Shown one piece after another: positions 11,723 through 41,448 of a DNA stretch of 64,000 bases. Source of the DNA: a delta proteobacterium MLS_D (GTDB taxonomy: Bacteria; Desulfobacterota; Syntrophia; Syntrophales; UBA2210); assembly GCA_002030015.1 (NCBI GenBank), contig LQBH01000013.1, forward strand, positions 145,218 to 209,217. The letters run 5' to 3'. The translations under genes were made by a program, and so were the position numbers. Numbering within the stretch: position 1 is the first letter of the stretch; each line of letters begins with the position of its first letter. The notes under the pieces are model-generated. The model made no database searches and was not told the DNA's origin. It saw only the letters and a list, made by a program, of their open reading frames with translations.

Positions 11723-12419
11723 CAGGGTTTATTAAGTTCCGATTTTGGCTCCAGGAACTGAATGGCGACAAGCTTCCCTCCACGCCAGCTTGCGCGGTAA
11801 ACCTGGACGATATCTTCTCCCGGAATTTCAGTCGCTCCCCCCTCGGTACGACCTTCCACCGTGTAGGTGATCACCGGTCCGTTCCTTTCGGTCTTAACGA
11901 CATAGGGTTCTCTGATGACCAAGAGCCCATGGCCTGGCGGATCATACTCGAATCGCAGTACTTTTTCAGCACCGCTTCGTATTCAGCGGGTGTGCTGTGA
12001 GAACGCATACACTCGCGCATTTCGGGAATTATCTCTTCACGAGCAGGGGCTTTCGGCCCGGAAAATTCGAGTGAAACGAGACGGCCGTTTTCCCAGCACG
12101 CTTCATACACCTGCGTGGTGTGACCGGGGATTTCGCTTGATGTTTCCTCCACCGTGCCCTCCACGGTATAGCATATCTGTGAATTTTTCTTTTCCGTTTT
12201 TATCACGTAGGGATTTTTTATGAGGAGCAGTCCCATTGCCTGGCACATAATCCCCTGGCCGCAATATTTTGTAATAACTTTGGAATAGGCCTCCTGGGAT
12301 ACGTGGGCCTCCATACATTCGCGCATTTCCGGAATGACGCCCTTGTCTTCGGCAGGGTCCGCAAAGACCGGTTCCGCCAGAAAACAACCCAACACAATCA
12401 TAAGAACGATTCGTTTCAT
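11722..12419 (-). pseudogene. Lipoprotein with two tandem Cys-containing domains, interrupted by a 1-nt frameshift (or assembly error)
   Basis: The signal peptide has a lipobox (MKRIVLMIVLGC). Repeat 1 is IPEMRECMEAH...QAMGLLLIKNPYVIKTEK...YTVEG...LEFSGPK. Repeat 2 starts in the same frame (IPEMRECMRSH...IRQAMG). It continues only in ORF 11722..11922 (LVIREPYVVKTERN...YTVEG...IQFLEPK). The break is at the CCC/GGG run near 11925-11928. Confidence 0.6.
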
Positions 12420-12581
12420 AATATCCCTCGTTTCCCGAAACAGTCGCCGGGAGCAGCGGTTGTATAGAACAAGTCACTTTTTCAGACCCGGCCGGTTCGC
12501 CGCAATGCTTCCTCTCCTCAATGTCCATCACTTTGCCCCGAGACCGGCGGGAAAAGATTCTCCGCCGGTCCGGAGAACGGT

Positions 12582-13757: not shown

Positions 13758-13777
13758 GGCTCCTCCTTTATCACCAT

Positions 13778-15190: not shown

Positions 15191-15221
15191 ATGTCCCTCC
15201 TTTGGTTATCGGTTCACAATG

Positions 15222-15491
15222 TTACTGGTTATCAGGGCGTCGAGAGGAATCGGCCAATTGCTCATACAACGACCGGCGCAATTCTTCGCTGTCGGCGTCT
15301 TTCTCCTCTGCAATTCCTGTCCTTTCGGATTCCATGGCCAACAGTGACGGGCTCAATTCAGTGAAAGCCGGATAGCGATTATCGTGCTGTGTTTCACCGG
15401 AGTCTCCCTCCTGAAACGCAGTCACGACGCGAGTCGCAGCCTGTCCGATTTCCAAGCACTCTTTCCTGAAAAACTGTCTTCTGGTGATCAT
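15222..15491 (-). CDS. Small protein with Tat-like RRxFF N-terminus but no hydrophobic h-region, copy A
   Basis: MITRRQFFRKECLEIG... I trimmed the start to the ATG after AAGGGGG. The size and pattern match 31433..31696: RRxFF, then an aromatic-x-x-S...L block, R-x-GI, E-E-L/V-R...YE. Confidence 0.5.
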   Translation of the reverse strand: MITRRQFFRKECLEIGQAATRVVTAFQEGDSGETQHDNRYPAFTELSPSLLAMESERTGIAEEKDADSEELRRSLYEQLADSSRRPDNQ

Positions 15492-15692
15492 GCGCCCCCT
15501 TATTAATGGTCCTGGAAAACCCTCAGTTTGATTAACTAGCAATAGAGATGCCACGACGCGCGTTACGATACAATCTCAGTTGATTCAAAGGTGGAGGGCC
15601 CGAAAGCGGTTACAAAAGAACCGGTCGTTTTTCATGAAAGGAACAAACCGCACCGGAACGGCAGGAAAAAGGGTGCGATATGTTCCCATGGT

Positions 15693-16103
15693 TCAGGTCG
15701 TTGTTTCGATAAATCCCGGCATGCGGAAATGGTCGCGATGCAGATACCCTCGCCGGTATGCCGCCAGGACTTCATCGATATCTCCCGATATACCGTAAAT
15801 AAGACGTATATTTTTCTCTTTGAGGAAATTCGCGAAGAAGGAACTCAGGGCGCCGCAGATGACAACCTTCACGTCATGATTGGTGAATGAACCAAGACGA
15901 TCATTCATGCAGGAACATTCAATGGAGAAGTGACAAGATTCAGAATCAATGACCAGCAACCTGGTGCAGGCATCCAGTACGGGGGCGACTCTCCCCATGA
16001 ACTCAGGGATAGCGACGCGCCCGTCTGTGCCGGAAAACGACGTGCGGAAGCCGTTTTCTGTTCGCGCGTCGCCACTGTTCAGTATTGTTTTCCCGGGTTT
16101 CAT
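15693..16103 (-). CDS. NifX/NifB-like (COG1433) protein, first gene of operon A
   Basis: VAIPEFMGRVAPVLDACTRLLVID and VVICGALSSFFANFLKEKNIRLIYGISGDIDEVLAAY fit the NifX_NifB fold pattern. Confidence 0.6.
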   Translation of the reverse strand: MKPGKTILNSGDARTENGFRTSFSGTDGRVAIPEFMGRVAPVLDACTRLLVIDSESCHFSIECSCMNDRLGSFTNHDVKVVICGALSSFFANFLKEKNIRLIYGISGDIDEVLAAYRRGYLHRDHFRMPGFIETTT

Positions 16104-16386: not shown

Positions 16387-17742
16387 GTGGATGTTACACA
16401 CCACCATGAACTTATCCTCGACAGCATCGCGGAGGGCGTTTTCACCGTTGATCTGGATTGGCGTATTACTTCCTTCAACATGGCTGCTGAGAAAATAACG
16501 GGTACTCCGCGTGAGCAGGCCCTGGGGCGGTACTGTTTCGAGGTCTTCCGCGCGGATATATGCGAGACATACTGTCCGCTACGATGGACCATGCAGGGGA
16601 AGAAACAATTGTCGAACATGCCCGTATACGTGTATCGCGCCGACAAGAGGCGTATTCCCATTTGTGTCAACACGGCGCTTCTAAGAGATGAAAATAACCG
16701 GATTATCGGGGGCGTGGAAACCTTTCAGGACATGTCCGTGGTCCGGGAACTTCGGAAAGCGCTTCAACAGACGCATTCTTTTAACGATATAGTAAGTGAA
16801 AATCCTCAGATGCTGCAGATCATGAGTCTGTTGCCCCAGGTCGCGGCAAGCGGCAGCACCATTCTGATAGAAGGCGCGAGCGGGACCGGGAAGGAACTCG
16901 TGGCGCGGGCCATTCATCATCACAGTCCACAAAGCGCGGGTCCTTTCGTGGCGGTCAATTGCGGCGCCCTGCCGGACTCGCTTATTGAATCGGAACTTTT
17001 CGGGTACAAAACCGGCGCATTTACCGACGCGCGGCATGACAGGCAGGGACGTTTCGCGATGGCCCAGAACGGCACGATTTTTCTTGACGAGATCGGAGAT
17101 ATTTCACCCTCCGTCCAGGTCGTGCTGCTTCGCGTGCTTCAGGAACACATGTACGAACCCCTGGGGTCCAGCCAGCCGGTTCCGACAAACGCCAGAATCA
17201 TTGCCGCCACGCATCGCAATCTCGAGCAACTGGTGCAGGAAGAAAAATTCAGGGACGATCTTTATTACCGTATTAATGTTTTTAAACTGGTGTTACCGCC
17301 GCTCGCGGAACGTAAAGATGATATTCCCCTGCTGATCGAGTTTTTCATTGAGCGTTTCAATAACCGAAAAGGACGGTCCGTTGTGGGCGTCTCAAAAAAG
17401 GCCATGTCTGCGCTGATGATGCATGACTGGCCCGGTAACGTGCGCGAACTTGAAAACGCGGTCGAGCACGCGTTTATTCTGTGCCGGAACGACATTATCG
17501 AACTTGAGGATCTGCCCGACAACCTGGCGCCGGTTCAGGAAACAACCGTTTTTTCGGGAAAAACATTGAGAGATATAGAACAGTTTGCCATACTCCAGGC
17601 GCTTCGGCGAAACAGGGGAAAAAAGACGGCCGCGGCACACGAACTCGGCATAGATAAAAACACGCTACGCCGCAAAATGATAAGGTTGGGGATCAGTGGG
17701 AAAGGCGGTGAGCAACGCGCCGTCGGAGGCGGCAGCGGCTGA
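16387..17742 (+). CDS. Sigma54-dependent transcriptional activator (PAS + AAA+ + Fis-type HTH), activator A
   Basis: PAS domain (LILDSIAEGVFTVDLDWRITSFN). Walker A GASGTGKELVARAIH. GAFTDA loop. Walker B IFLDEIGD. WPGNVRELEN. C-terminal HTH (AAHELGIDKNTLRRKM). Confidence 0.9.
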   Translation: MDVTHHHELILDSIAEGVFTVDLDWRITSFNMAAEKITGTPREQALGRYCFEVFRADICETYCPLRWTMQGKKQLSNMPVYVYRADKRRIPICVNTALLRDENNRIIGGVETFQDMSVVRELRKALQQTHSFNDIVSENPQMLQIMSLLPQVAASGSTILIEGASGTGKELVARAIHHHSPQSAGPFVAVNCGALPDSLIESELFGYKTGAFTDARHDRQGRFAMAQNGTIFLDEIGDISPSVQVVLLRVLQEHMYEPLGSSQPVPTNARIIAATHRNLEQLVQEEKFRDDLYYRINVFKLVLPPLAERKDDIPLLIEFFIERFNNRKGRSVVGVSKKAMSALMMHDWPGNVRELENAVEHAFILCRNDIIELEDLPDNLAPVQETTVFSGKTLRDIEQFAILQALRRNRGKKTAAAHELGIDKNTLRRKMIRLGISGKGGEQRAVGGGSG

Positions 17743-18551: not shown

Positions 18552-18887
18552 ATGAAAAGAAAGGGAAGTTACAGTCACAATTATGATCCTGATAGACTTC
18601 GTGAATTAATTCAGGACGGAAAAAGCGCCAGAGAGATTATGAGGGAGCTGAAAATCTCCAAGTACAGCCTCCAGGAACAGTTGCTCATGCTGCAGGTTGA
18701 GGACAAGAAGCTGTACATCATCAAGGACCTGCTGGATTTTAAGACAGAAGAGGAAAAGAAATGGACGAAGTACAAGAAAGACGGAGTAATATTTTCGGAA
18801 AGGATGCTGGAATTCACCGGGTTTAAACCGGGTGATGCGTTTGAAATGGTAGTCGAGGAAGGCCGAATAATTCTCAAAAAGATATAA
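18552..18887 (+). CDS. Small putative DNA-binding protein (N-terminal HTH-like, C-terminal AbrB/SpoVT-like)
   Basis: SAREIMRELKISKYSLQE is HTH-like. GFKPGDAFEMVVEEGRIILKKI resembles an AbrB/MazE swapped-hairpin C-terminus. An AAAGGAG RBS is present. Confidence 0.4.
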   Translation: MKRKGSYSHNYDPDRLRELIQDGKSAREIMRELKISKYSLQEQLLMLQVEDKKLYIIKDLLDFKTEEEKKWTKYKKDGVIFSERMLEFTGFKPGDAFEMVVEEGRIILKKI

Positions 18888-18918: not shown

Positions 18919-20490
18919 GTGATGATGGACGATAAACATGATTTATCATCTGAGTTGCGGAAGGTGCACACCTGGAAGAATCTCAGTCGCAAGGGTCTCA
19001 GATACGATATTCAACCCTGGGTTTTTTTCGGGGGAGCCGGAATTATCCTTCTCGGCGTTATATCAACACTTATTGCCGGCGAAAAAGCCGAAGCTTTTTT
19101 TGGTTTGATTCAAAGCTGGATTGCAAGCATGACGGGGTGGTTTTTCATTCTTGTCATGAATGTCGCCTTTGTTTTCTGTATTGTTCTTTTATTATCCAAG
19201 TATTCAAAGATGCGTCTCGGCGGCGAGGACGCCGAACCGGAATTCAGCCTGGCAGGCTGGTTTGCGATGCTGTTCAGCGCCGGCATGGGAATCGGCCTGC
19301 TTTTTTACGGGGTCGCGGAACCGATGTTTCATTATGTCGCCAATCCCTTTAGCGAACCGGGCACGGTTGAATCAGCGAAAAAGGCAATGGAGCTGACGTT
19401 TTTGCACTGGGGCTTTCATCCGTGGGCCATTTACGCGCTTGTCGGATTGGGACTCGGCTTTTTTGGTTTTTCCAGGGGACTGCCGCTGTCGATACGCAAC
19501 ATATTTCACCCATTGCTTGGTGACCGAATTTATGGACCTGTCGGAAATGTAATCGACATTCTCGCGACTATCGCCACGATGTTTGGTGTCGCGACATCAC
19601 TCGGACTCGGCGTTCAGCAGATAAACGCGGGACTCAATCACCTGTTCGGAGTGCCGCAGAACGTGGTGATACAGGCAATCCTGATTGCAGCGATCACGGC
19701 TGTCGCGACGTGGTCAGTCGTTCGCGGCCTGGATTCGGGAATAAAGTTATTGAGCCAGATCAATATGGTGGTCGCCGGTTTGTTAATGGTTTTTGTGCTC
19801 ATACTCGGACCCACGCTCTTCATTATTAACGGAATACTTGAAAACACGGGCAATTATATTCAAAACCTTCCCTCCCTGTCCCTGTGGTCGGAGTCGTTCA
19901 GTGAAAAAGGCTGGCAGGCCGCCTGGACGATATTTTACTGGGGCTGGTGGATAGCGTGGTCGCCCTTTGTCGGCATGTTTATAGCCCGCATCTCCTTTGG
20001 CAGAACAATACGTGAATATATTCTCGCCGTTCTGATAGTACCCGTCGCCGTTACCATCGTCTGGATGACGGTTTTCGGAAACAGCGCCATTTTCATCGAA
20101 CATTTCGGCGCGGGGGGTATGGCAAAAGCGGTCCAGGAAAATATTCCCGTATCGCTCTTTATTTTCCTCGAAAATTTCCCCTTTTCCCTGGTTACTTCGT
20201 TGACAGCAGTGGTCGTAATCATCACTTTTTTTGTCACATCGTCGGACTCGGGATCAATGGTTATCGATATCATTACGGCGGGCGGCACCCCCGATCCGCC
20301 CAGGCCGCAGCGCATATTCTGGGCCGTGTTAGAGGGCGTTGTTGCCGCGGTGCTTCTCGTCGGCGGCGGGTTGATAGCGTTGCAAACGGCTGCGATTATT
20401 ACCGGGTTTCCGTTCGCGATTATTATCCTGGTTATGTGCTGGTCGTTGTTCAAGGGGCTGCTGGAAGATTGGGAAGAGTATTACGAATAA
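18919..20490 (+). CDS. BCCT-family (betaine/carnitine/choline) transporter
   Basis: 523 aa with about 12 TM. AGWFAMLFSAGMGIGLLFYGVAEP and WTIFYWGWWIAWSPFVGMFIARIS are the BCCT signature. Confidence 0.9.
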   Translation: MMMDDKHDLSSELRKVHTWKNLSRKGLRYDIQPWVFFGGAGIILLGVISTLIAGEKAEAFFGLIQSWIASMTGWFFILVMNVAFVFCIVLLLSKYSKMRLGGEDAEPEFSLAGWFAMLFSAGMGIGLLFYGVAEPMFHYVANPFSEPGTVESAKKAMELTFLHWGFHPWAIYALVGLGLGFFGFSRGLPLSIRNIFHPLLGDRIYGPVGNVIDILATIATMFGVATSLGLGVQQINAGLNHLFGVPQNVVIQAILIAAITAVATWSVVRGLDSGIKLLSQINMVVAGLLMVFVLILGPTLFIINGILENTGNYIQNLPSLSLWSESFSEKGWQAAWTIFYWGWWIAWSPFVGMFIARISFGRTIREYILAVLIVPVAVTIVWMTVFGNSAIFIEHFGAGGMAKAVQENIPVSLFIFLENFPFSLVTSLTAVVVIITFFVTSSDSGSMVIDIITAGGTPDPPRPQRIFWAVLEGVVAAVLLVGGGLIALQTAAIITGFPFAIIILVMCWSLFKGLLEDWEEYYE

Positions 20491-20543
20491 GTGAAAAGGA
20501 TCCCGACGAAGCCTCATCGGGATCCCGCTGGTAATCTGAGGCG

Positions 20544-21479
20544 ATGACAGAGGTCTGGATCATGGTCAAATGGCACTACCTGTTTACTGTGGTATTCCTG
20601 GTATCGGCGCTTTTTGTGAACGGAGCTTCAACAGCGTACGGCCAGGAGGAAAAACCGACGGTCCGCCTTGCATACGTTGAATGGTCGTCGGAAATAGCCA
20701 GCACAAACCTGGTAAAGGTGATTATTGAAGAAGAGTTGGGATATCCCTGTGAGATAACAGCCATGACCACGGACAATATGTGGCGGGCGGTCGCCGAGGG
20801 CGAAGTCGACGCGATGGTCGCGGCATGGCTTCCCGGTACACACGCTCATTTCTATGAACAGTACGGCGAATGCGTGGACGACCTTGGTCCCAATCTCGAA
20901 GGTACGCGTACCGGCCTCGTGGTGCCGCAGGTGGCCCCGGGAAGGCAGACTGCTCGTTCCGGCCTTAAAAACGAACCGTATATCACGATCGATTCAATTC
21001 CCGAGATAAAGGAACATGTCGACAAATTCCGCGGCCGGATAATCGGGATTGATCCCGAGGCCGGCATTATGCGTCAGACAAGGGAAGCCATGAAGGTATA
21101 CGGGCTTGAGGACATGAAACTGGTATCGGGAAGCGAAATTTCGATGACCGCGGAGCTGGCAAGCGCCATAAGAAAACTGGACTGGATCGTTATCACCGGG
21201 TGGGTGCCCCACTGGAAATTCGCCCGCTACAGGTTGAAGTTTCTTGATGATCCGGAAAAAGTGTACGGCGGCGAGGAAACTATCCACACGATGGTTCGCG
21301 AAGGACTCAAAGAAGACATGCCTGAAATTTACGCGTTCCTCGACAATTTTTACTGGACACCGGAGGACATGGAGCAGCTTATGCTGTGGATCGAAGCCCG
21401 GAAGGGCGTATATCCCGAGGACAGCGCACACCGGTGGATGAGCTATCACCGGGACAGGGTTCGGGAATGGCTTCCCTGA
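20544..21479 (+). CDS. Glycine-betaine-binding protein (OpuAC/ProX-like substrate-binding domain)
   Basis: Signal peptide, then VRLAYVEWSSEIASTNLVKVIIEEELGY...DAMVAAWLPGTH, typical of OpuAC. The true start may be ATG 20562. Confidence 0.8.
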   Translation: MTEVWIMVKWHYLFTVVFLVSALFVNGASTAYGQEEKPTVRLAYVEWSSEIASTNLVKVIIEEELGYPCEITAMTTDNMWRAVAEGEVDAMVAAWLPGTHAHFYEQYGECVDDLGPNLEGTRTGLVVPQVAPGRQTARSGLKNEPYITIDSIPEIKEHVDKFRGRIIGIDPEAGIMRQTREAMKVYGLEDMKLVSGSEISMTAELASAIRKLDWIVITGWVPHWKFARYRLKFLDDPEKVYGGEETIHTMVREGLKEDMPEIYAFLDNFYWTPEDMEQLMLWIEARKGVYPEDSAHRWMSYHRDRVREWLP

Positions 21480-23560: not shown

Positions 23561-25561
23561 TTATCCCCCGCCCGATTTCAATGCCCTCTGTGCCTCTTCT
23601 TTGCTTTCGTACATGCTTGATATTACTTGCTTCTCCTCAAGGGCTTCTCCGATTTTCATCCGAGCAAAGGCGTTTGTTGAGTAGCGTGTCGTGTTGATGT
23701 AACAATCCTTAACGAGTTTCTTAACCATTTCCGTGTACTCATCAATCAGGTGCGGCAGGATGTTGAAATTGTCATAATTGACGATGGTATAGACTTTTTT
23801 CCCGACGGGTCCGAGGATATTCCTCACCGCACGGTCTATTTCCTGAATTTGTTCGCTCAATTTAACATGGTATCCCTCGAAGTTGACGAAGAAAAGATTC
23901 TCCTCGGAGTTATAGGTCAGACGTTCCTCCAAGGGAATGCTGATGAGATCAGTCTCCAAGCCCATTGGTTCGGGACAGAAGATCCTCTCATCCATGAGAC
24001 GGAGATTTTTGATGACTGGTTTAAAGTCCATCAGGGCGAGGATGTCCTTCTCAAGGTCAATTCCGGGTGCGATCTCGATAAGCTCAAGCCCTTCACTGGT
24101 CAATGCAAAGACACAACGCTCGGTTACATACCGCACATATTGCCTCTGTTCCGCACTGTATTTCCCTCCGAATGTCATATGGTCGACTTGACTTACGAAC
24201 TTTTTCGCCTTTCCTTCTTGGTCGATTTGGAGCTGTTTGTCGTTCACGGAGACCTTCAGCCCAGCCGCTGTAAATGTACCAACGAATATACACTTCTTCG
24301 CGCACTGGCTGATATTGATAAATCCGCCGCACCCGGCGAGTTTCGGGCCGAACTTGCTGACATTGACATTTCCGTCCTTGTCTGTTTCGGCCATGCCGAG
24401 GCAGGTGATGTCCAGACCGCCGCCGTCATAGAAATCGAACTGATAGGGTTGGTCAATAAGGCAATCGGTGTTGGTGGCGGCGCCGAAGTTCAGCCCCCCG
24501 GCGGGCACCCCGCCGATAACGCCCGGTTCGGCGGTAAGGGTGAAATATTTCAGGATCTTTTCTTCGTTGGCGACATTCGCGACGCCTTCGGGAATGCCGA
24601 TTCCGAGATTAACGATATCATTAACTCTCAGCTCGAATGCCGCCCTTCTCGCGATGATTTTTCTCGCGTCCATTGCCAAGGGAGCCAACGAATCCAGAGG
24701 AACTTTTGTTTCGCCGCTGAAAGAGGGATTATAGACCTCAGCAAAGGTCTGCCAGTGGTTCTCGGGACGGGCGACAACGACGCAGTCAACCATGATTCCG
24801 GGCACCTTCACCTGTCTGGAATTCAAGGTTCCCTTCTCGGCGATCCGTTCAACCTGAGCGATGACAACACCGTTAGAATTCTTAACAGCGGTCGCAATGG
24901 AAAGATTCTCCAGGGTCAGCGCCTCCTTCTCCATAGTTATGTTGCCGTCCGTATCGGACGTCGTGCCCCGTATCAGTCCGACATTTATGGGCATGAGCTT
25001 ATAGGCAAGATACTGTATGCCATCAAATTCAACCAACTCCACAATATCATCTTCGGTTATATCATTAAACTTTCCGCCTCCATACCGTGGATCTACATAT
25101 GTTCCCATCCCAACGCTCGAGATGGTTCTGGGTTTATGGGCAGCGGTATCCCTGTACATGTGAGATATCACCCCCTGGGGCAGATTGTAGGCGATGATTT
25201 TGTTTTCGCTTGCCAGTTGCCCCAGCTTGGGTGCCAGTCCCCAGTGTCCCCCGATGACTCTTTTTACCAAGCCTTCGTGGGCAAAGTGGTTTAAACCCTT
25301 ATCTTTCCCGTCGCCCTGGCCGGCTGCATACATGAGGGTGAGGTCACGGGGATGACCGGTTCTTAGAAAAAAAGCTTCAACCGCAATGGCGATCTCCTCG
25401 GCAAAGCATGTTCCGACAAACCCGCCGAATGCAATTGTGTCTCCGTCTTGTATCAGTTGAACAGCCTCTTCCGAGGTGACCACTTTATTCCGAGCCCGCA
25501 TGACGCCCCGTAGGATGGGATGGCCGCTCTTCGTGTTTGAGGGGGTTCCGTTTAAAACCAT
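23561..25561 (-). CDS. Acyl-CoA:acetate/3-ketoacid CoA-transferase family protein (long form)
   Basis: 666 aa. The N-terminus (EEAVQLIQDGDTIAFGGFVG...GLNHFAHEGLVKRVIGGHWG) and overall layout are typical of COG4670/propionate CoA-transferase-like enzymes. An AAGGAGA RBS is present. Confidence 0.8.
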   Translation of the reverse strand: MVLNGTPSNTKSGHPILRGVMRARNKVVTSEEAVQLIQDGDTIAFGGFVGTCFAEEIAIAVEAFFLRTGHPRDLTLMYAAGQGDGKDKGLNHFAHEGLVKRVIGGHWGLAPKLGQLASENKIIAYNLPQGVISHMYRDTAAHKPRTISSVGMGTYVDPRYGGGKFNDITEDDIVELVEFDGIQYLAYKLMPINVGLIRGTTSDTDGNITMEKEALTLENLSIATAVKNSNGVVIAQVERIAEKGTLNSRQVKVPGIMVDCVVVARPENHWQTFAEVYNPSFSGETKVPLDSLAPLAMDARKIIARRAAFELRVNDIVNLGIGIPEGVANVANEEKILKYFTLTAEPGVIGGVPAGGLNFGAATNTDCLIDQPYQFDFYDGGGLDITCLGMAETDKDGNVNVSKFGPKLAGCGGFINISQCAKKCIFVGTFTAAGLKVSVNDKQLQIDQEGKAKKFVSQVDHMTFGGKYSAEQRQYVRYVTERCVFALTSEGLELIEIAPGIDLEKDILALMDFKPVIKNLRLMDERIFCPEPMGLETDLISIPLEERLTYNSEENLFFVNFEGYHVKLSEQIQEIDRAVRNILGPVGKKVYTIVNYDNFNILPHLIDEYTEMVKKLVKDCYINTTRYSTNAFARMKIGEALEEKQVISSMYESKEEAQRALKSGGG

Positions 25562-25600
25562 GGCATGTCTCCTTAAGAATAATTTTAGATGTATGAGTTT

Positions 25601-26017
25601 TTATTTCGGCGGACTGACCACGGCCTCGCCTTCCAATACCGTGATTCCGTCCTGATTGTAGCAGGTGGTTTTTAGCCGCACCTTGTTCTTGACGGCCGTG
25701 ATTTCTATAATTTCCGCCTTGGCGGTAATGGTATCGCCTATCCTGACCGGGGCCAGGAACTTGAGGCTCTGATCAAGGTAGATTGTTCCGGGGCCTGGCA
25801 GTTTCATCGCTATAACCGTTGAAATAAAACCCGCCGACAGCATGCCGTGGGCGATACGTGTCTTGAAAAAGGTGCTTTTCGCATACTCTTCGTTGGTGTG
25901 CGCCGGGTTAAAATCGCCGCTTACGCCGGCATAGAGATAAATATCCGCCTCGGAAATCGTTTTAGCAAAATCCGCCTGATCACCGACCTCTAGTTCTTCT
26001 ATGGTCTTTCCGTGCAT
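25601..26017 (-). CDS. MaoC-like (R)-specific enoyl-CoA hydratase / dehydratase
   Basis: 138 aa. The hydratase-2 motif is YAGVSGDFNPAHT. Hotdog fold. Confidence 0.85.
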   Translation of the reverse strand: MHGKTIEELEVGDQADFAKTISEADIYLYAGVSGDFNPAHTNEEYAKSTFFKTRIAHGMLSAGFISTVIAMKLPGPGTIYLDQSLKFLAPVRIGDTITAKAEIIEITAVKNKVRLKTTCYNQDGITVLEGEAVVSPPK

Positions 26018-26082: not shown

Positions 26083-26098
26083 CTCAAGAAACATGCCA
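26083..26098 (-). promoter_or_regulatory. Candidate sigma54-like promoter with atypical -12 (TTGA) upstream of MaoC/CoA-transferase
   Basis: The minus strand reads TGGCATGTTTCTTGAG, with a perfect -24 TGGCA and correct spacing. The -12 is TTGA instead of TTGC. It lies about 66 nt upstream of the 26017 start. Confidence 0.3.
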
Positions 26099-26233: not shown

Positions 26234-27682
26234 CTACACTGTAGATACCCCGCTGCCGTCGTGAAGGGGGATATTATGTTTTTTCATCTTCTTGTACAAT
26301 AAGGTACGATGAATACCCAAAATCTTTGAGGCTTGTTGCTTGTTGTACTTCGCACTAGTAAGTGCGTGGAGAAGCGCCTCTCTTTCGGCTTCTTCATGTA
26401 CATTTTTCAGGGAGATCTTGTCTGTATCAAGAGATATAAGGTGCTGTCTTTTTTTACTGGGTGGCAGGGTCCGCCTCAAATAAAAGGGGAGATCTTCGGG
26501 GTAAATGGTATGGCCCTCCAGAGCCGAAAGCGTCCTTTCAAGTACATTCTGAAGCTCCCTCGTGTTCCCCGGCCAGTTGCTCTTCTTCAATAATTCCTCG
26601 GCCTCGGGTGTGATTGATATTTCGGATATATCGACATTTTCTGTAAGATTCTTCAGTAAATGCCTGGCAAGGGGGATGATATCATCTCTCCGTTCGCGCA
26701 GGGGAGGGATGTGGAGCGATATAACGTTCAAACGATAAAAAAGGTCAAGTCGAAACCTCTTTTCCGGAACCATCTCTTCGAGGTTCTGATTGGTGGCAGC
26801 GATAAGGCGGAAGTCGGAATGAACCGCCGCCGTTCCTCCCAACCGAGTAAATTCCTTGTCCTCGAGGACCCTCAAAAGCTTCGGTTGCATGTCAAGGGAC
26901 ATGTCGCCGATCTCGTCCAGGAATATGGTGCCGTTATCAGCCAGTTCAAACTTTCCTTTCTTGCCGCTGCTACTGGCCCCGGTGAAGGCTCCTTTTTCAT
27001 ATCCGAACAGTTCCGATTCGATCAATTCCTTCGGAATAGCTGAACAGTTGAGGCGAACAAAGGGATACACCTTCCGGGAACTGGCACTGTGGATTGCATG
27101 GGCGAAAAGTTCTTTGCCGGTGCCGCTTTCACCCGTTATCAGTACGGTGAAAGAGTTGGCCGCCGCCTTTATGGCTTCTTGTTTCAGGGAGAGCATGGAC
27201 TCGCTCACCCCGACAATGTTGTCAAATGTAAAGCGCCTTGATCGAAGGCTGAGGAGTTCTCTTTCATACTCTTTCACCTTTGTCTCCAGAGTGGAAAGTT
27301 TCTTGGCGAGTTTTGTTAAATCTTTGGTATTCTTGAACATCACTTGGCCGTACACGGCGGTCACTTTGTCGCCCTCCTTTATGGGAATGCGCTGGACCAC
27401 CATATTCTGCCCCTTGATCAAATGAGAATGGTTAATTTCGGGGATCCCCGTTTTTGCCACAATGTGCATTCTGGAGTTCTCAACAACTTCAGTGCAATGC
27501 TTGCCGATTTGCTTCTCCGGGTCTACATTGAGAAACTTGCCGTAGGGCTTATTAAAGTGGGTCACGTAACCATCCGCGTCTGTAACGACAGCGCCATTGT
27601 ATATGCTGTCGAAGACCAGCGGATCGATTCTAAGCTGATTCGTTATCTTCTTTAAAGACTTACGTTCCTTTGACGGAATAAT
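26234..27682 (-). CDS. Sigma54-dependent transcriptional activator (PAS + AAA+ + HTH), activator B; probable non-ATG start
   Basis: Walker A GESGTGKELFAHAIH, GAFTGA, IFLDEIGD, WPGNTRELQN, and the HTH QASKILGIHRTLLYKKM. The ORF-track GTG (27565) would cut the PAS domain. The frame stays open to 27700 and encodes ...LRIDPLVFDSIYNGAVVTDADGYV. An AAGGAGG RBS (27691-27697) lies 8 nt before ATT 27682. Confidence 0.8.
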   Translation of the reverse strand: MIPSKERKSLKKITNQLRIDPLVFDSIYNGAVVTDADGYVTHFNKPYGKFLNVDPEKQIGKHCTEVVENSRMHIVAKTGIPEINHSHLIKGQNMVVQRIPIKEGDKVTAVYGQVMFKNTKDLTKLAKKLSTLETKVKEYERELLSLRSRRFTFDNIVGVSESMLSLKQEAIKAAANSFTVLITGESGTGKELFAHAIHSASSRKVYPFVRLNCSAIPKELIESELFGYEKGAFTGASSSGKKGKFELADNGTIFLDEIGDMSLDMQPKLLRVLEDKEFTRLGGTAAVHSDFRLIAATNQNLEEMVPEKRFRLDLFYRLNVISLHIPPLRERRDDIIPLARHLLKNLTENVDISEISITPEAEELLKKSNWPGNTRELQNVLERTLSALEGHTIYPEDLPFYLRRTLPPSKKRQHLISLDTDKISLKNVHEEAEREALLHALTSAKYNKQQASKILGIHRTLLYKKMKKHNIPLHDGSGVSTV

Positions 27683-27847
27683 CGGGGTTGCCTCCTTTAT
27701 CTATCTATAAAGTGTACCAAAAAAACTACATGTTACCATTCTAATACTTATTCGCTCTTCTGTTTGTCAACTATTTTTTTCACGTTAGTCGAGATATCCC
27801 GCGTCAAATCACGAATACAATGGAACCTTTCCGGCGGGACGGCACGC

Positions 27848-27863
27848 TGGTCTGAAACTTGCA
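27848..27863 (+). promoter_or_regulatory. Candidate sigma54 (-24/-12) promoter of operon B
   Basis: TGGTCTGAAACTTGCA has GG-N10-GC spacing and a TTGCA -12. It lies about 100 nt upstream of ATG 27962 and is divergent from activator B. Confidence 0.55.
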
Positions 27864-27961
27864 TCACTGGGAACTACTGAAAAGGTTGTGAAGCGCTTTG
27901 TGGAAGGTACCCTTCGCACAGGCGATATTGTGAGTTAACAATTACCGAAAGGAGAAGTATT

Positions 27962-29029
27962 ATGAAGAGACGAAATTTCTTGAAGGGCATGGCCGCAACG
28001 GGCGCTGGTGTGGCCCTGTCCGGTGGTGTCGGAACTCTGTCAAAGGCCCAAGCACGGAAGCAGGAGGACTTCGGTGTAATTAAGAGCCTGAAAGTACACG
28101 TTATTTCGGAGACGAGTTGGTTTGACAATCCCACCCTTGGCAAGGACATCAAGGCGGCCGGCGGAATCAACACCAACCAGTACGACGTTGTCTATACCGA
28201 GGAAAACCTCGGCGGCTATGCCGCTCTGGTTGAAGTGGAAGCACTCGACGGCAAGAAAACCAAGTATCTCCTCGATACGGGCTGGAGCAACGACTGGATG
28301 GATTACTGTTTTGAAAAAGACGGTATCGACAAGATGCTTCAGAACAGAGAGATCGATACCATGATCATTTCTCATGATCACATCGACCACTACTTCGGCC
28401 TGGAGAGTACGCTGAAACATCAGGACGATATCAAGATTTACTTCCCGCCTACGGCGATGAAGAAAAGCTTCGAACTGCTCAAGGGTGCCGACTTCTCGGC
28501 CACGCCGGGCTGTCCGAAGAACAGCATTCCACACAAGGGTGAACTTATTGTGACGGAAACCGATAAGCTGTACAAACTTCAGGACGGCGCGGCGCTCGTT
28601 TTCTTCGATGCACCGGCAACGCTCCAGGTGCGCGGTGAGAACGTCATGTACTTCAATATCAAGGACAAAGGATATGTCACCGTTACCGGTTGCTGCCATC
28701 CCGGCATCATGACGCTTATTAATTATGCGCGGAGGAATTTCAAGGACGGTAGCAATAATTACGGTTGCTACGGCGGTCTGCACATTTCTCCCTTTGAAAA
28801 CTGGGATCCCAAGATGGATGACATCCTCAAAGGTGTGAAGGCCATGAACATGACCAAGGTCGCCTGCAACCACTGCACCGGCTGGATCTGGGCGGAGAAA
28901 GCGGACAAGATGGGCATTCCCATAGTTCACGGCACGAACAAAAACCTGTCCTACAAGAAGACGGGTACTCTGGCTAAGGCAAATACATCCAACGTTTATC
29001 TCGGAAATGGGGATGAGGTCATTTTCTAA
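27962..29029 (+). CDS. Tat-signal metallo-beta-lactamase-fold protein (COG1237-like), copy B
   Basis: Canonical Tat signal MKRRNFLKGMAATGAGVALSGG...AQA. MBL motif ISHDHIDHYFG. VTGCCH, YGGLHISPFENWDPK and CNHCTG. An AAAGGAGAAG RBS is present. Confidence 0.85.
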   Translation: MKRRNFLKGMAATGAGVALSGGVGTLSKAQARKQEDFGVIKSLKVHVISETSWFDNPTLGKDIKAAGGINTNQYDVVYTEENLGGYAALVEVEALDGKKTKYLLDTGWSNDWMDYCFEKDGIDKMLQNREIDTMIISHDHIDHYFGLESTLKHQDDIKIYFPPTAMKKSFELLKGADFSATPGCPKNSIPHKGELIVTETDKLYKLQDGAALVFFDAPATLQVRGENVMYFNIKDKGYVTVTGCCHPGIMTLINYARRNFKDGSNNYGCYGGLHISPFENWDPKMDDILKGVKAMNMTKVACNHCTGWIWAEKADKMGIPIVHGTNKNLSYKKTGTLAKANTSNVYLGNGDEVIF

Positions 29030-29162
29030 AGAAGGATAATACGATTCTCCGTTCACCGTGAGGATGAAGGGGTCGACTACTCCAGGAGAGTAGGGTACTT
29101 GGGGTTTGACCCCTTCTTTACGGAGGTGTGACTCATTTTAAACCGAATTAGGGGGTTCTTTC

Positions 29163-30407
29163 ATGAGCAACAATCAATCGCTTGAGAACTGGCTTACAAC
29201 GAGACAGTTGGAGCCTCGATGGTCTGTCGGTCTGTCAGGGGTTGCAAACCTGATCGTCCTTCTCATCGGCGTCTTTGCCGTATGGTGGATCTTTTTCTCC
29301 AATGGCGGGATATTCAAACTGTATACGCCTCTCCTGGGCTTCTCGCTGGTCATATGGACGCTGCTCATACTGCTCTGGCAGACGGAACTGTTTGACTACT
29401 GGCCGTTCTCACGCTCCTACCTGCAGAATACCCATCCGCTCGCCAAGGGCGCGACGATGTCACTCCTCATGCTTGTCATCTACCTCGTCCTTATCATCGG
29501 GTGTGTCTACCTGATCATGGGCAAACTCGGCATCACCTATTTCAACTGGAACAGTCTCATGACCTATGGAGATTTCGGCCAGGACGCCACATCCACACGG
29601 GAAGCCGCGTCATGGGCGATGCTGTGCCTCTCTGTTCCGTTCTTCCTCGTGAGTGTCTGGTTCATGTTCGGGATCGGAAAGGATCTCTTTCCTGAATTGA
29701 AACAGCCAAAGTTCGGGATCGCCATGTGGTCGATTATCGCGGTCCTGGGTATCTACTTCTATTTCATTTTCTTCCATCCCCACATTGGATCCATGTTCTA
29801 TCCGAAACAGATCTATGCCGCGGTGCCTCCCTGGTGGGAAAGCATAGCGCAGACCAACAGCGCCGAATACAGTCTTGGCATCCTGTTCGTCACCGTCGTC
29901 GGCATTTTCTATGCTTTCCATCTCTGGGACGGCTGGCCATATAACTACGTTCAGAAACAGCCGTGGCGCTTTATTTATTTCGCCGTTGTCAGTCTTGTCA
30001 TCGGCTATATTATCTTCCGCGTTCAGTTGTTCATTTTCGACTATATCTGGTATGAAGCCTATGTCGGCGGTCAGAATGAAGCCAACTTCGGTTGGCGGTA
30101 TAGCCATACCGTCACGATGGCGAATTTTGTCCTTGTCATCGCTCTGATTCAAAACGTCTTCTTCGGACAGGCATACGAAAAGATGAACGCTGTCGTGCGA
30201 GGCCTTATCAAGACCATCGTCGCTGTTGTCGTTGGCCTGCTTTTCGCGTGGGCCTACTATGCCTGGGGACCGGCGCTTCTCGGGATATGTGGGGGTATTT
30301 CCCATCCGTCGGAGAATGCCGCCGCCTTCCTGATTATGGTTATTAACCTGATCATGATTCAGGATTACTTTATGGATCGATGGCCCGGGTATCGGCTCAA
30401 AAAATAA
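29163..30407 (+). CDS. Polytopic membrane protein (~10 TM), Trp/Tyr-rich, unknown family, copy B
   Basis: 414 aa. It is a paralog of 13778..15190 (see the shared blocks listed there). Confidence 0.8.
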   Translation: MSNNQSLENWLTTRQLEPRWSVGLSGVANLIVLLIGVFAVWWIFFSNGGIFKLYTPLLGFSLVIWTLLILLWQTELFDYWPFSRSYLQNTHPLAKGATMSLLMLVIYLVLIIGCVYLIMGKLGITYFNWNSLMTYGDFGQDATSTREAASWAMLCLSVPFFLVSVWFMFGIGKDLFPELKQPKFGIAMWSIIAVLGIYFYFIFFHPHIGSMFYPKQIYAAVPPWWESIAQTNSAEYSLGILFVTVVGIFYAFHLWDGWPYNYVQKQPWRFIYFAVVSLVIGYIIFRVQLFIFDYIWYEAYVGGQNEANFGWRYSHTVTMANFVLVIALIQNVFFGQAYEKMNAVVRGLIKTIVAVVVGLLFAWAYYAWGPALLGICGGISHPSENAAAFLIMVINLIMIQDYFMDRWPGYRLKK

Positions 30408-30430
30408 CCGTTCTGAAGGGATAGATAAAC

Positions 30431-31414
30431 ATGACCGTGACCAGGCATATTGATCCTCTTGTTTCTTTCGAGATGCTTCTGCTCGAGCTGTTTCAAGGGG
30501 TATTTCAGAACGATGCGGCGCGGCGGCAATTCGGTTTTTCCCAGATATCGCAGGTGACAACCTCTGACGGTCTGCTTTCATGGTATTTGTGGTTTTCTGA
30601 AAAGCCCGGCGCCTACTCTCTTACTGTTACCGAGGGGCAGGTGGTGTCTGAGTCAGACAATGTGTCCGGTAACCAGCAAGATACGGATATCTTGGAGGGC
30701 CGTCTTGCTATACGGTATTTCCCTGATATGGAAGATGAGATGTTTGATTCCCTTTCCTGTTATGAGCAGATATTTCGGATGGGACCTTCCTTCGATGCTA
30801 ATGGTACGCCCTCTTTTGAAGGGGGGCGTACCATGCATGACGGTTTTTTTGTCGCCGGGTATATGAATATTCTCATCCATTCTTCGAAAGCCGATGTGGA
30901 TTTTTTCTGCTCTGCACCGGACAGATGGCGGGATTACCGCCTCGACGGCCTCACATTGACCAATGATAAGGGAGAGTCCCGCCGGGTCCTCTCTCCCGGT
31001 GCCGTTGACCGGGACTTCCCCGGCTGGGATATCTCGTTCTTTATCTTAGATAAAATTATTTCATCGTTCTGTTTTGTGTTCGGTCAGGCGCCCCGGTGCG
31101 TGGGAGCCGCCTCCAGGCCGTTTGTTCACTACGAGATCGATTCGAAACAAACGGTCCGTACTGTGAAGGACCCGGATATAACCGAGTGCGCCTTTGGCGT
31201 CTCATTTTCCAACCACGCTGGAGAAAATCTTTTGAAAAAAAGATATGGCTCTTTTGCTGAACGGTTTGATTCACCGGATTACTCCGTGATCGGCATGTGG
31301 AAAGATCCTGACGGTATCCCCGCGCGGTGGAAGAGGCCGGAGTGGTGGACGATCAGGACCACACATTTTCATGCCGACCCCGATTACGTCTGCTCCTGCT
31401 ACGCGGACGTCTAA
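30431..31414 (+). CDS. Unknown-domain protein, free-standing paralog of the N-terminal half of the COG0523 fusion
   Basis: 327 aa. LSPGAVDRDFPGWD versus LSPGEVDRDFPAFD, and RLAIRYFPDMEDEMFDSL versus RFGLCYFPNEQESLVERF. I recognise no known motif. Confidence 0.7.
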   Translation: MTVTRHIDPLVSFEMLLLELFQGVFQNDAARRQFGFSQISQVTTSDGLLSWYLWFSEKPGAYSLTVTEGQVVSESDNVSGNQQDTDILEGRLAIRYFPDMEDEMFDSLSCYEQIFRMGPSFDANGTPSFEGGRTMHDGFFVAGYMNILIHSSKADVDFFCSAPDRWRDYRLDGLTLTNDKGESRRVLSPGAVDRDFPGWDISFFILDKIISSFCFVFGQAPRCVGAASRPFVHYEIDSKQTVRTVKDPDITECAFGVSFSNHAGENLLKKRYGSFAERFDSPDYSVIGMWKDPDGIPARWKRPEWWTIRTTHFHADPDYVCSCYADV

Positions 31415-31432
31415 GGAAAGGATTGAACTGGT

Positions 31433-31696
31433 ATGATTGACAAGTCACGTCGCAGTTTTTTTAATGAATTCTTTGTGAAAAACGCGATCAAATGTGTTTC
31501 CGAAGCCCATAAAGCCTACGAGGACACCAAAAATGATCTCGACTACTTCAATTCCTTTGAGTCGGCCTATCCCCTTATATCTGAGAGCTACTCTTTTCTC
31601 GAAGATGAAGTGATACGCCTTGGGATCGACACCGAGGGGATGACAAAACTCGAAATCGTTAGGGAGATTTACGAACGAAACAAAAATGTTCCTTAA
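31433..31696 (+). CDS. Small protein with RRxFF N-terminus, copy B
   Basis: MIDKSRRSFFNEFF... is 87 aa. The pattern is shared with 15222..15491 and the gene is tightly spaced after 31414. Confidence 0.55.
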   Translation: MIDKSRRSFFNEFFVKNAIKCVSEAHKAYEDTKNDLDYFNSFESAYPLISESYSFLEDEVIRLGIDTEGMTKLEIVREIYERNKNVP

Positions 31697-31792: not shown

Positions 31793-32259
31793 CTACGTAG
31801 GTTTCAGTGGAGCACTGGTAATTCCAAGCGCACTATACACATCCGCCTGTTTCGGTGTCAGGATACCGCAATACCGTAGATGAACTATTGTACCGTCGGC
31901 CGTGGGAAGATGTGTGCTAAGAGCAACGTGTGTCTTCAGTAGTGAATGAACCGTATTCCAACGATGACTGAGATACCGGCTGTTGGTCACGTCAAGTAAG
32001 GTTCGCAATTTCCAGTAACGAGTCCATCGACACCTTCCGTTTACGCTGCCTTTCCTAGTGCCGCCCGAAGGCAGCAGACTTGAATGTCGCGCAGGCTCTC
32101 TCGGTACGGGAGCTGGGCGAAGGCCATGCAGAGGTACTGATCCCAGCAGGAGAAACTGATCACCTTGTGGTTGCCGTCGTAGCGATCGACGCATTTCCGA
32201 AACTCGTAGGGGGTGACAAAATCCATTAACTGGGGAAAAATCGTTTTCCCGGTATTCAT
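31793..32259 (-). mobile_element. Internally deleted / frameshifted IS4-family (DUF4372-type) transposase remnant
   Basis: MNTGKTIFPQLMDFVTPYEFRKCVDRYDGNHKVISFSCWDQYLCMAFAQLPYRESLRDI matches the DUF4372 N-terminus of IS4-family transposases. It breaks off after about 70 aa. A different frame carries a YLSHRWNTVHSLLK block like the Y..RW.IE..FK.LK C-terminal motif. The total of about 470 nt is far too short for an intact gene. Confidence 0.7.
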
Positions 32260-32550
32260 GCGCTGCCTCCACTATCGTCGATGGCGGAGACTGGCATATC
32301 GGGGAAACTATTTTCAAATCGATAAATGACATTTTTCGCTCAATCTAGTTATATTTCAGTCATTTGAAACAGGTGAAAAGTTCAACCTTGGGACAGAAGT
32401 GTATTAATAACAGTATTAATAGCATATTATCGGTCACTGTTCGGCCCCCCCCAAAGAACTGCATGTAATATTATCAATGGGTTACACGTGACCAATCACT
32501 TAAAATAGCCGTATTTTGTTGCTTTTTGTGAAAATGTGGTTAAAGTTGGG

Positions 32551-40272: not shown

Positions 40273-41448
40273 ATGCGTGAAGCCGTTATTGTCAGTGCGG
40301 TGCGAACCCCCTTGGGATCGTATAACGGAACTCTTGCCGGCATCGGGGCCACCGATCTTGGTGGCCTCGTGATCGCCGAGGCGATTCGTCGGGCCGGAAT
40401 CGAGCCCGCGCTGGTCAACGAGGCAATCATAGGGCAGGTTCTGCCCTGTGGCTACGGTCAGAATCCGGCAAAACAGGCTTCCGTCAAGGCAGGCCTGCCC
40501 TGGGAGACCGAGTGCATCACCATCAACAAGGTCTGCGGTTCATCCCTCAAGGCGGTGATGCTGGCCGCCCAGGCCATTCAACTGGGCGATGCCGACGTGG
40601 TGGTGGCTGGCGGCATGGAAAACATGAGCATGGCGCCATATTACCTGGAGAAGGCGCGATTCGGCTACCGCATGGGGCCCGGGGTGTTGCAGGACCATAT
40701 GATGCACGACGGTCTCTGGGACGTAGTCAATGATTTTCACATGGGCATTTCCAACGAATTGTGCTCAGAAAAATACGGCATATCACGGGAAGAGCAGGAC
40801 CGGTATGCCCTGCGCTCATATGAGCGCTCCCTCGCGGCGATTGCGGAAGGCCGATTCAGGGAGGAAATTGTGCCGGTACCCATTCCCAGACGCAAGGGTG
40901 AACCGGCGCTGTTCGACACCGACGAGTGCCCCCGTGAAACCAGCTACGAAGTCCTGGCCGCCATGGGAGGCGCCTTTAAAGAAGGAGGAGTTACCACGGC
41001 AGGTAATGCCTCGGCAATCAGCGACGGCGCTGCAGCCGTGGTGGTGATGGCCCGGGAACGGGCCGAAGCGTTGGGTTGTACCGTGATGGCCACTATCGGA
41101 GCGCAGGCCTCCTACGGCATCGACATGAAGTACGTGCTGGTGGCGCCCATCGGGGCGGTTCCAAAGTGTCTGGCCAAGGAAGGCATTACCATCGACCAGG
41201 TGGACCTCTTTGAGATCAACGAAGCCTTTGCCGGTTCCACCTGCGCCGTCATACAGGAACTTAACCTCGATCCGGACAAGGTCAACGTCAACGGGGGCTG
41301 TGTGGCCCTGGGCCACCCCATCGGCTCCAGCGGCTGCCGGGTGCTGGTAACTATGCTCTATGAAATGATTCGGCGAAACAGCACGACCGGTCTGGCAACC
41401 CTGTGTCTGGGAGGCGGTGAGGCTGTTGCCATGGTGGTGAAACGATAG
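40273..41448 (+). CDS. Acetyl-CoA acetyltransferase (thiolase II)
   Basis: 391 aa. The active-site blocks are NKVCGSSLKAV, NASAISDGAAAV and NGGCVALGHPIGSSG. Confidence 0.92.
   Translation: MREAVIVSAVRTPLGSYNGTLAGIGATDLGGLVIAEAIRRAGIEPALVNEAIIGQVLPCGYGQNPAKQASVKAGLPWETECITINKVCGSSLKAVMLAAQAIQLGDADVVVAGGMENMSMAPYYLEKARFGYRMGPGVLQDHMMHDGLWDVVNDFHMGISNELCSEKYGISREEQDRYALRSYERSLAAIAEGRFREEIVPVPIPRRKGEPALFDTDECPRETSYEVLAAMGGAFKEGGVTTAGNASAISDGAAAVVVMARERAEALGCTVMATIGAQASYGIDMKYVLVAPIGAVPKCLAKEGITIDQVDLFEINEAFAGSTCAVIQELNLDPDKVNVNGGCVALGHPIGSSGCRVLVTMLYEMIRRNSTTGLATLCLGGGEAVAMVVKR

Follow-up and report, generated by a model that had tools for sequence, protein, structure and literature searches.

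The delta proteobacterium MLS_D, a Mono Lake sediment population, carries two divergent copies, here called A and B, of a gene cassette for a metallo-beta-lactamase-fold protein with a twin-arginine translocation (Tat) signal (MBL), a polytopic membrane protein (MEM), a cytoplasmic protein (UNK) and a small acidic protein (MINI). We analyzed them in a 64,000-nucleotide stretch of contig LQBH01000013.1 (positions 145,218 to 209,217 of the forward strand; hereafter the window), taking copy B as the main subject. Copy B spans 27962-31696 on the plus strand as four intact open reading frames (ORFs) in the order MBL-MEM-UNK-MINI, and copy A reads MINI, MEM, MBL, a lipoprotein gene, and UNK fused to a COG0523 GTPase (UNK~COG0523) (Table 1). 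An earlier note, made from the letters of the window alone, had given the ORF lengths, strand and order of copy B, which match the coordinates exactly, and had rightly recognized that gene order differs between the copies. The closest genome relatives of the host are two Syntrophaceae metagenome-assembled genomes (MAGs), L003 and L004, with which it shares 92-93% identity in MEM.

Table 1. Cassette genes and associated features, in window coordinates.
Feature	Position	Strand	Description
MBL_B	27962-29029	+	355 aa; Tat signal (MKRRNFLKG...AQA), COG1237-type metallo-beta-lactamase fold; HxHxDH, GCCH, GGLH, CNHCTG
MEM_B	29163-30407	+	414 aa; predicted 10-transmembrane-helix protein, N-in/C-in
UNK_B	30431-31414	+	327 aa, cytoplasmic; C-terminal HFHxDxDxxCSCYxDH tail
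MINI_B	31433-31696	+	87 aa, acidic; N-terminal SRRSFF twin-arginine motif, no hydrophobic h-region
Predicted sigma54-type -24/-12 promoter	27848-27863	+	TGGTCTGAAACTTGCA; ahead of copy B
NifX-like (PF02579-type) 3' remnant	27870-27938	+	69 bp, 22 codons plus stop; ends in ...TEKVVKRFVEGTLRTGDIVS and stop
Sigma54 enhancer-binding protein	26234-27565	-	Divergent from copy B; strong matches to PF00158, AAA_lid_14 and HTH_8
Sigma54-like element	26084-26098	-	TGGCATGTTTCTTGA; 81 nt upstream of MaoC gene; -12 is GA, not GC
MaoC-type hydratase	25601-26017	-	Recurrent clade B cassette neighbor
Single-chain family-I CoA-transferase	23561-25561	-	Recurrent clade B cassette neighbor
Copy A, whole	9821-16103	-	NifX-like, promoter, MINI, MEM, MBL, lipoprotein, UNK~COG0523
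Copy A NifX-like	15693-16103	-	PF02579 28 bits (cutoff 26.3); weak NCBIfam MrpORP match
Copy A predicted sigma54 promoter	15538-15553	-	TGGCATCTCTATTGCT
MINI_A	15222-15491	-	
MEM_A	13778-15190	-	
MBL_A	12582-13757	-	PF00753 22.7 bits, exactly at cutoff
Copy A lipoprotein	11871-12419	-	Lipobox VLGC
UNK_A~COG0523 fusion	9821-11722	-	633 aa; PF02492 1.1e-42, PF07683 1.4e-11; GCVCC motif
PAS-sigma54 activator of copy A	16387-17742	+	PF00989 46 bits, PF00158 224 bits

Sequence comparison indicates that all four A/B pairs are homologous because MBL and MEM match by BLASTP and UNK and MINI match through family profiles. MBL_B finds MBL_A at E = 7e-89 with 39% identity, and each of the ten MBL sequence blocks that the earlier note listed as shared is visible in their alignment; MEM_B finds MEM_A at E = 2e-57 with 28% identity across 405 aa. 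The UNK pair yields by BLASTP only a local match of 55 aa (E = 3e-7), and the MINI pair is marginal (E = 0.068). When profiles are compared with hhalign, the UNK_B family aligns with the N-terminal domain of the fusion in copy A and its relatives (clade A) over 254 columns (E = 2.5e-21, 99.4% probability), with homology ending where the copy A GTPase starts, and MINI_B aligns with the clade A MINI profiles over 75 columns (E = 8.5e-9, 95.7% probability). The description of all four as clear paralogs therefore stands for MBL and MEM as made, and for UNK and MINI only with family profiles.

Related cassettes were sought in one genome per species with patterns from copy B and its relatives (clade B), which returned 37 loci; as such a scan under-samples clade A, a metagenome scan was added to compensate. 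All complete clade B loci keep the strict order MBL-MEM-UNK-MINI (~30 genomes). Clade A is larger (at least 427 clusters at 90% identity), and 86 of its loci follow the order MINI-MEM-MBL-(lipoprotein)-UNK~COG0523, with MEM present at 76, MBL at 60, UNK~COG0523 at 54, MINI at ~42 and the lipoprotein at 25. Two MEM branches that diverge deeply (37% and 27% identity) also retain all four families, arranged as MBL-MEM-MINI with UNK on the opposite strand or as MBL-MEM-MINI-UNK. Counting all of these, more than 100 public loci hold the four genes as a group, and at least four gene orders are represented. The notion that the retained core works together, put forward in the earlier note, is supported by this co-occurrence in clades A and B and the deep branches and by correlation between the families' distance matrices across 26 clade B loci (Mantel r 0.65-0.85, p <= 0.001), a mirror-tree signal that is inseparable from shared species phylogeny; the four proteins thus appear to form one functional unit. 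The two outcomes named beforehand as fatal to that idea, a lack of paralogy in some of the four pairs and homologues that usually lie apart, are the opposite of what alignments and profiles, the joint loci and the correlated family distances reveal. Mean identity is 81% for MBL and 66% for MEM, which change slowly, versus 37% for UNK and 48% for MINI, which change faster, as would be expected of catalytic versus accessory proteins.

Desulfobacterota harbor both clades, and clade A extends to some Alphaproteobacteria. Clade A loci come in two regulatory versions, with either a GntR/FCD repressor and a PAS protein or a PAS-sigma54 activator and a NifX-like gene. The cassette is apparently mobile; transposase genes flank some copies, including the clade A loci L046 and L047, and a search of PLSDB plasmids found no cassette homologue. 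The cassette is undescribed: a literature search found no account of it, a review of COG0523 alone proving useful. MAG MFD02416.bin.2.187 has two clade B cassettes on separate contigs (L029, L030), only one of which includes a NifX-like gene. In the Desulfobacterales MAG HOU_bin.0076 (L035 7131-11136), the activator, MBL and MEM genes are each fragmented, as pseudogenes or through assembly frameshifts.

MBL_B matches PF00753 (29 bits, cutoff 22.7) and PDB entry 2p4z (9e-14), and its family profile finds in the PDB only 7dck (3.9e-16), 2p4z (4.4e-16) and 3h3e (4.2e-6). These matches assign it to the COG1237 type within the MBL superfamily, a subgroup itself without assigned function, so membership gives no reaction. 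The archaeal dihydropterin-RFAP synthase MJ0301 also counts among the COG1237-type MBL-fold proteins. Invariant in 20 of 20 MBL sequences from both clades are RR, HxHxDH, GCCH, GGLH, WDPK and CNHCTG, and with them the ligand residues of MBL_B (H138-x-H140-x-D142-H143, H246 and H274). The solved COG1237 proteins (2P4Z, 7DCK and 3H3E/TM1679; E about 4e-16 with the family profile) share HxHxDH, GC.H, GG.H and HCTG, and the GC.H and HCTG motifs align with 2p4z. They are short (248-284 aa) and of unassigned function; the cassette MBLs differ from them in having a Tat signal, ~80 further N-terminal residues (the ISETSWF...GG block), a second cysteine in GCCH, the CNHC motif and an obligate trio of partner genes.

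Export of MBL_B is predicted from its N-terminus, MKRRNFLKGMAATGAGVALSGGVGTLSKAQA, which has the twin-arginine motif, moderately hydrophobic h-region and AxA site of Tat substrates and scores above cutoff with two Tat models (PF10518, 25 bits, cutoff 22.7; TIGR01409, 18.5 bits, cutoff 16.7). SoxH, an MBL-fold protein that sulfur-oxidation clusters encode and the Tat pathway exports to the periplasm, and whose function is still unclear, is alike in fold and export, but it was not found as a relative in any search here and is not known to have a membrane, UNK or MINI partner. Relative to L003 (window 27962-30407 versus L003 8797-11245), the synonymous divergence (dS) of the MBL gene is threefold that of the adjacent MEM gene (1.28 versus 0.42), which may reflect recombination within the operon.

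MEM has no match in Pfam, NCBIfam or a PDB profile search, and an exhaustive search of 1.84 billion representatives with its profile returned only 159 proteins, mostly fragments. The AlphaFold2 (AF2) model of MEM_B is confident (predicted local distance difference test [pLDDT] 87.6, predicted template modeling score [pTM] 0.90), and Foldseek finds no PDB match to it at E <= 1e-3. The predicted ten-helix, N-in topology places 11 lysines and arginines inside versus 2 outside. Of the loop positions conserved at 90% or more, 44 are periplasmic and 18 cytoplasmic; the conserved periplasmic loops read FHPHxGSMFYPxQIYTAVPPWW, GGQNEANFGWRY and GVSHPSEN, and HPH is invariant. Given this charge bias and the concentration of conserved positions in the periplasmic loops, MEM would be a partner of MBL at the periplasmic face.

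UNK_B has no signal peptide and no match in Pfam, NCBIfam or the PDB profile search; its AF2 model is confident (pLDDT 86, pTM 0.85), with no Foldseek PDB match at E <= 1e-3. Weak matches in the Foldseek searches with the two models, to PebS, PYL and a G-protein-coupled receptor (TM-score <= 0.3), were disregarded. Its C-terminal Cys/His tail, conserved in clade B, sits where UNK_A runs into the GTPase. We infer that UNK is a metal-insertion or maturation factor because it lacks a signal peptide, is homologous to a domain that in clade A is fused to cobW/CobW_C, and carries this tail at the GTPase position. No COG0523 gene lies in copy B or within 10 kb of any clade B locus. The earlier note had listed the GTPase, the lipoprotein and a NifX-like gene as missing from copy B; none is there in intact form, but 69 bp of a NifX-like gene remain. 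It had offered dependence on copy A in trans or a simpler maturation route as explanations, and the latter fits better because of the general lack of a nearby COG0523 gene in clade B and the Cys/His tail of UNK_B at the GTPase position.

The established clients of bacterial COG0523 proteins are essentially only those of CobW and Nha3, and eukaryotic ZNG1 serves the binuclear METAP1 (PMC11672702). Copy A resembles these client-specific metallochaperones (ZNG1-METAP1, Nha3 of Fe-nitrile hydratase and CobW) in its cobW/CobW_C domains and GCVCC motif, and ZNG1 in particular in that the fusion adjoins an obvious binuclear-metal client. It differs in that a novel-fold domain of ~310 aa stands ahead of the G-domain and that the client would be Tat-exported. 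Throughout clade B, copy B included, this domain occurs with a Cys/His tail and without any GTPase.

MINI has no relative in Pfam, NCBIfam or PDB sequences. Its RRxFF motif is conserved, with R6 and R7 invariant or nearly so, as is an acidic and aromatic core, DYFxSFESAYPLISE...LGID. The segment after the arginine pair, FFNEFFVKNAIKCVSEAHK, is amphipathic, holds charged residues and matches no Tat model; with these charges, the MINI N-terminus is no Tat signal peptide. The copy A lipoprotein, with no match in Pfam or NCBIfam, could serve in metal or thiol handling in the periplasm. It consists of an internal duplication (IPEMRECM...H...Y..V.KKYC, twice), and its homologues lie between MBL and the UNK~GTPase gene in 25 clade A loci.

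The window is collinear with L003 and L004 on both sides of a gap (26261-27615 corresponds to L003 1719-3073, and 27875-31684 to L003 8710-12519), across which ~5.4 kb is deleted relative to L003: the genes dctPQM of a tripartite ATP-independent periplasmic (TRAP) transporter, a co-directional PAS-sigma54 activator (6860-8224), the native promoter TGGCATGGCCGTTGCA and most of a 107-aa NifX-like gene. The junction falls immediately past the -12 element of the promoter now ahead of copy B, and its right edge is the NifX-like remnant, which aligns with the last codons of the intact 107-aa genes (L003 8450-8773, L002 8445-8768). Three other, independent assemblies share this junction. A NifX-like gene precedes MBL in 11 of ~32 clade B loci and is present in 29 of 86 clade A loci; the L003 orthologue scores 18.6 bits, below the PF02579 cutoff. 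The lack of NifX, which the earlier note had treated as a trait of copy B, is accordingly a loss through this deletion and no design feature.

The promoter reads TGGTCT-GAAAC-TTGCA, with GG-N10-GC-type spacing; it is intergenic, lies ~100 nt upstream of MBL and has the enhancer-binding protein gene divergent from it, all in keeping with a predicted sigma54-dependent promoter. Together with 230 bp upstream it is orthologous to the TRAP promoter region of L003 and L004, and an identical 18-mer, GCTGGTCTGAAACTTGCA, spans the -24/-12 element upstream of dctP in L003 (3310-3325) and in L004. These alignments indicate that it is the captured TRAP-operon promoter of the relatives; the earlier note had its sequence and position right, and in relatives it belongs to a different operon. 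Of 32 related loci, 20 have a site resembling a -24/-12 element ahead of the MBL operon; across the whole window, the loose pattern TGG-N9-TGCW shows no enrichment (18 found, 12.7 expected). Copy B documents a regulatory rewiring in which a single deletion captured a neighboring promoter and would thereby have joined the four core genes to it. The ratio of nonsynonymous to synonymous divergence (dN/dS) of the four genes against L003 is 0.06-0.25. Copy B is most likely still functional, given its intact ORFs, this low dN/dS, the sigma54 promoter at ~100 nt and the recurrence of the junction in other assemblies. Directly downstream of MINI_B lies a transposase fragment (31793-32332, minus strand, especially 32041-32259; PF14294 DUF4372 in the JGI gene calls).

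The divergent activator has 74% identity to the L003/L004 orthologue that flanks the MaoC/CoA-transferase and TRAP genes, and an activator of the same type lies divergent beside the cassette in Desulfosarcina widdelii and other Desulfobacterales. The window, L003 and L004 have the same element, TGGCATGTTTCTTGA, upstream of MaoC, letter for letter, amid otherwise diverged intergenic DNA. Copy B most likely answers to this activator, which also flanks the MaoC/CoA-transferase genes. That each copy has its own PAS-sigma54 activator, as the earlier note held, is thus true in name only: the ancestral activator of copy B (L003 6860-8224) is deleted, and the remaining one is the orthologue of the gene beside MaoC and TRAP. 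Its frame (26234-27721) and its homology to L003 run ~45 codons beyond GTG 27565, to ~27700, with no ATG, GTG or TTG upstream of that codon; the PAS domain appears only in the upstream-extended translation, below the Pfam threshold (PAS_9 20.7 bits, cutoff 27). As no canonical start includes the whole PAS domain, that domain would be N-terminally clipped unless a non-canonical start is used.

Neighbors of the cassette at 34 clade B loci include a sigma54 activator (19), short-chain dehydrogenases/reductases (8), CoA-transferases (6), TRAP dctPQM (4) and MaoC (3). Around both copies in the window lie a 4-hydroxybutyryl-CoA dehydratase-family gene (HpaB, 7071-8603, minus strand), the CoA-transferase and MaoC genes (23561-26017, minus strand) and a thiolase gene (40273-41448, plus strand), a C4 hydroxy-acid/crotonyl-CoA type set that suggests a link to short-chain hydroxy-acid or acyl-CoA metabolism. 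The conserved sigma54-like element ahead of MaoC speaks for a catabolic link as well.

The gene content, paralogy, synteny, Tat signal, motifs, topology, deletion and purifying selection observed here lead us to a tentative reading, which we place just short of probable: a sigma54-driven operon for a periplasmic metalloenzyme with a membrane partner and dedicated cytoplasmic maturation factors, probably hydrolytic and tied to catabolism. MBL, with its full set of binuclear-site ligands and extra invariant cysteines, would gain its metal cofactor in the cytoplasm, aided by UNK as a client-specific insertion factor that is GTPase-fused in clade A and Cys/His-tailed and GTPase-free in clade B. 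Folded MBL would then leave by the Tat pathway and act, presumably in a complex, at the periplasmic face of MEM, and MINI might be accessory to maturation or export, as escort or in proofreading. The reaction would take place outside the cytoplasm, would probably be a hydrolysis and would serve the catabolism of a small organic compound, with a carboxylate product possibly activated by the CoA-transferase. 3- or 4-hydroxybutyrate esters or lactones, phosphocholine esters and dimethylsulfoniopropionate were considered as substrates and set aside, being supported by neighborhood hints at most.

Several observations weigh against this proposal. The mirror-tree correlation shares its signal with the species phylogeny, the catabolic neighbors occur at a minority of clade B loci only, and the neighbors at the 86 clade A loci lean to metal and Fe-S biology, not carbon catabolism (Mrp/MinD-FeS ATPases at 9, NifU-like at 7, radical SAM at 5, Fur at 4, TonB/ExbB at 4 and DtxR-like at 3). 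A simple hydrolase has no obvious need for a polytopic partner, NifX-like proteins or a GTPase; the activator beside copy B may be N-terminally truncated; and the role given to MINI is a guess. A bolder form of the proposal, which we regard as possible though on balance unlikely, is that the cassette represents a new class of periplasmic metalloenzyme system in which a COG1237 MBL works only in complex with a membrane protein of new fold and is matured by a new chaperone fold, GTPase-fused or GTPase-free. If true, genomic evidence would for the first time explicitly pair a bacterial COG0523 protein with an exported client enzyme, whose metal cofactor might be non-canonical and whose chemistry might be new.

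Other explanations were also considered. MBL might be a periplasmic redox enzyme with an iron or Fe-S/heterometal cofactor built with NifX-like, Mrp/MinD and NifU-like help, with MEM a cofactor-less quinone-interacting anchor, analogous and unrelated to NrfD/PsrC, and with reduction or oxidation of a small molecule such as O2, NO, a peroxide, or a sulfur or metalloid species. Tat export is typical of cofactor-bearing redox enzymes, redox proteins with the MBL fold exist (flavodiiron proteins and the persulfide dioxygenase ETHE1), and GCCH and CNHCTG hold extra invariant cysteines; consistent with this, too, are the NifX-like genes at 11 clade B and 29 clade A loci, the Mrp/MinD-FeS, NifU-like and radical-SAM neighbors, and the PAS-containing regulators in both regulatory versions. 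We nevertheless think it unlikely: the metal ligands follow HxHxDH, as in hydrolases, rather than the HxExDH of flavodiiron proteins; the GC.H and HCTG cysteines also occur in cytoplasmic COG1237 proteins such as 2p4z; MEM has just two invariant histidines, both in one periplasmic loop, and no structural likeness to known quinone-binding anchors; and the core includes no cytochrome or ferredoxin subunit. A device for metal homeostasis or trafficking (uptake, storage or periplasmic delivery), with MEM as permease and MBL as a metal-binding or processing protein, would account for the COG0523 fusion in clade A, the Cys-rich duplicated lipoprotein at 25 clade A loci, the Fur, DtxR-like, TonB/ExbBD and ArsP-like neighbors at some clade A loci and the His-rich periplasmic loops of MEM. 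It seems improbable given that most loci are under GntR/FCD or PAS-sigma54 control, not Zur/Fur, that the enzyme-type active site is fully conserved, that clade B has carbon-catabolic neighbors and that metal-related neighbors occur at 3-9 of the 86 loci only.

Two further explanations were weighed. Copy B could be a decaying duplicate without useful expression, copy A alone being functional, as the ~5.4-kb deletion and NifX remnant, the possibly truncated activator, the transposase fragment downstream and the pseudogenised cassette of L035, with frameshifts in activator, MBL and MEM, might suggest. The four intact ORFs with dN/dS of 0.06-0.25, a conserved sigma54 promoter intact at normal distance, and the many Desulfobacterales cassettes that naturally lack NifX and have the same activator type divergent make decay a poor explanation in our view. 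That MEM is an ordinary AAT/APC amino-acid transporter, adjacent to MBL incidentally, is effectively refuted. This idea comes from JGI product names, and we rejected the label "AAT family amino acid transporter": MEM has no Pfam, NCBIfam or PDB-profile match to support it, its AF2 model has no likeness to the APC/LeuT fold (TM-score 0.16 against the APC transporter ApcT, 3gi8), and the adjacency is kept in more than 100 loci. A profile that retrieves 159 proteins from an exhaustive search likewise gives no link to the very large APC superfamily.

The proposed periplasmic metalloenzyme has counterparts in logic among known systems. DmsABC/DmsD and MsrPQ combine a Tat-exported enzyme, a membrane subunit and a cytoplasmic maturation chaperone, and thus share the plan of an exported, cofactor-loaded subunit with a polytopic partner and a dedicated accessory. 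They have no component homologous to the cassette, which in turn has no molybdopterin, Fe-S or heme-binding family and for whose MEM and UNK the PDB offers no structural counterpart. The orange-protein (ORP) clusters of Desulfovibrio are sigma54-regulated NifX-like/Mrp clusters; they resemble the cassette in the PAS-sigma54 activator, the small PF02579 proteins and, at some clade A loci, Mrp/MinD-FeS ATPases. They differ in that they are not known to contain MBL, MEM, UNK or MINI, and in the cassette the NifX-like gene is optional and is lost from copy B.

Three of the four core families have no Pfam or NCBIfam model, and the MEM and UNK models have no structural relative in the PDB, yet all are conserved and under strong purifying selection. 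The cassette offers a clean handle on the COG0523 client question, with a candidate client indicated by gene fusion and synteny, evidence that is useful because bacterial clients are essentially unknown beyond those of CobW and Nha3 (PMC11672702). Copy B provides a matched GTPase-free paralogue in the same genome as the GTPase-fused copy A, and knowing the substrate might bring to light an extracytoplasmic reaction new to anaerobic carbon or metal metabolism.

Other features of these regions are of minor note. Small ORFs adjoin copy A at 9143-9430 (plus strand; weak DUF6504 match) and 18552-18887 (plus strand; 111 aa, no family match). Between the copies lie genes for a BCCT transporter and an OpuAC-type betaine-binding protein (18919-21479, plus strand), and clade A loci include MTTB in L047 and a GMC oxidoreductase in L048; a quaternary-amine link based on these genes was considered and rejected as too sporadic. 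At the deep-branching locus L129 (5194-8591), an APS (adenosine 5'-phosphosulfate) kinase gene lies between two PF01663 phosphodiesterase-family genes just downstream of the cassette.

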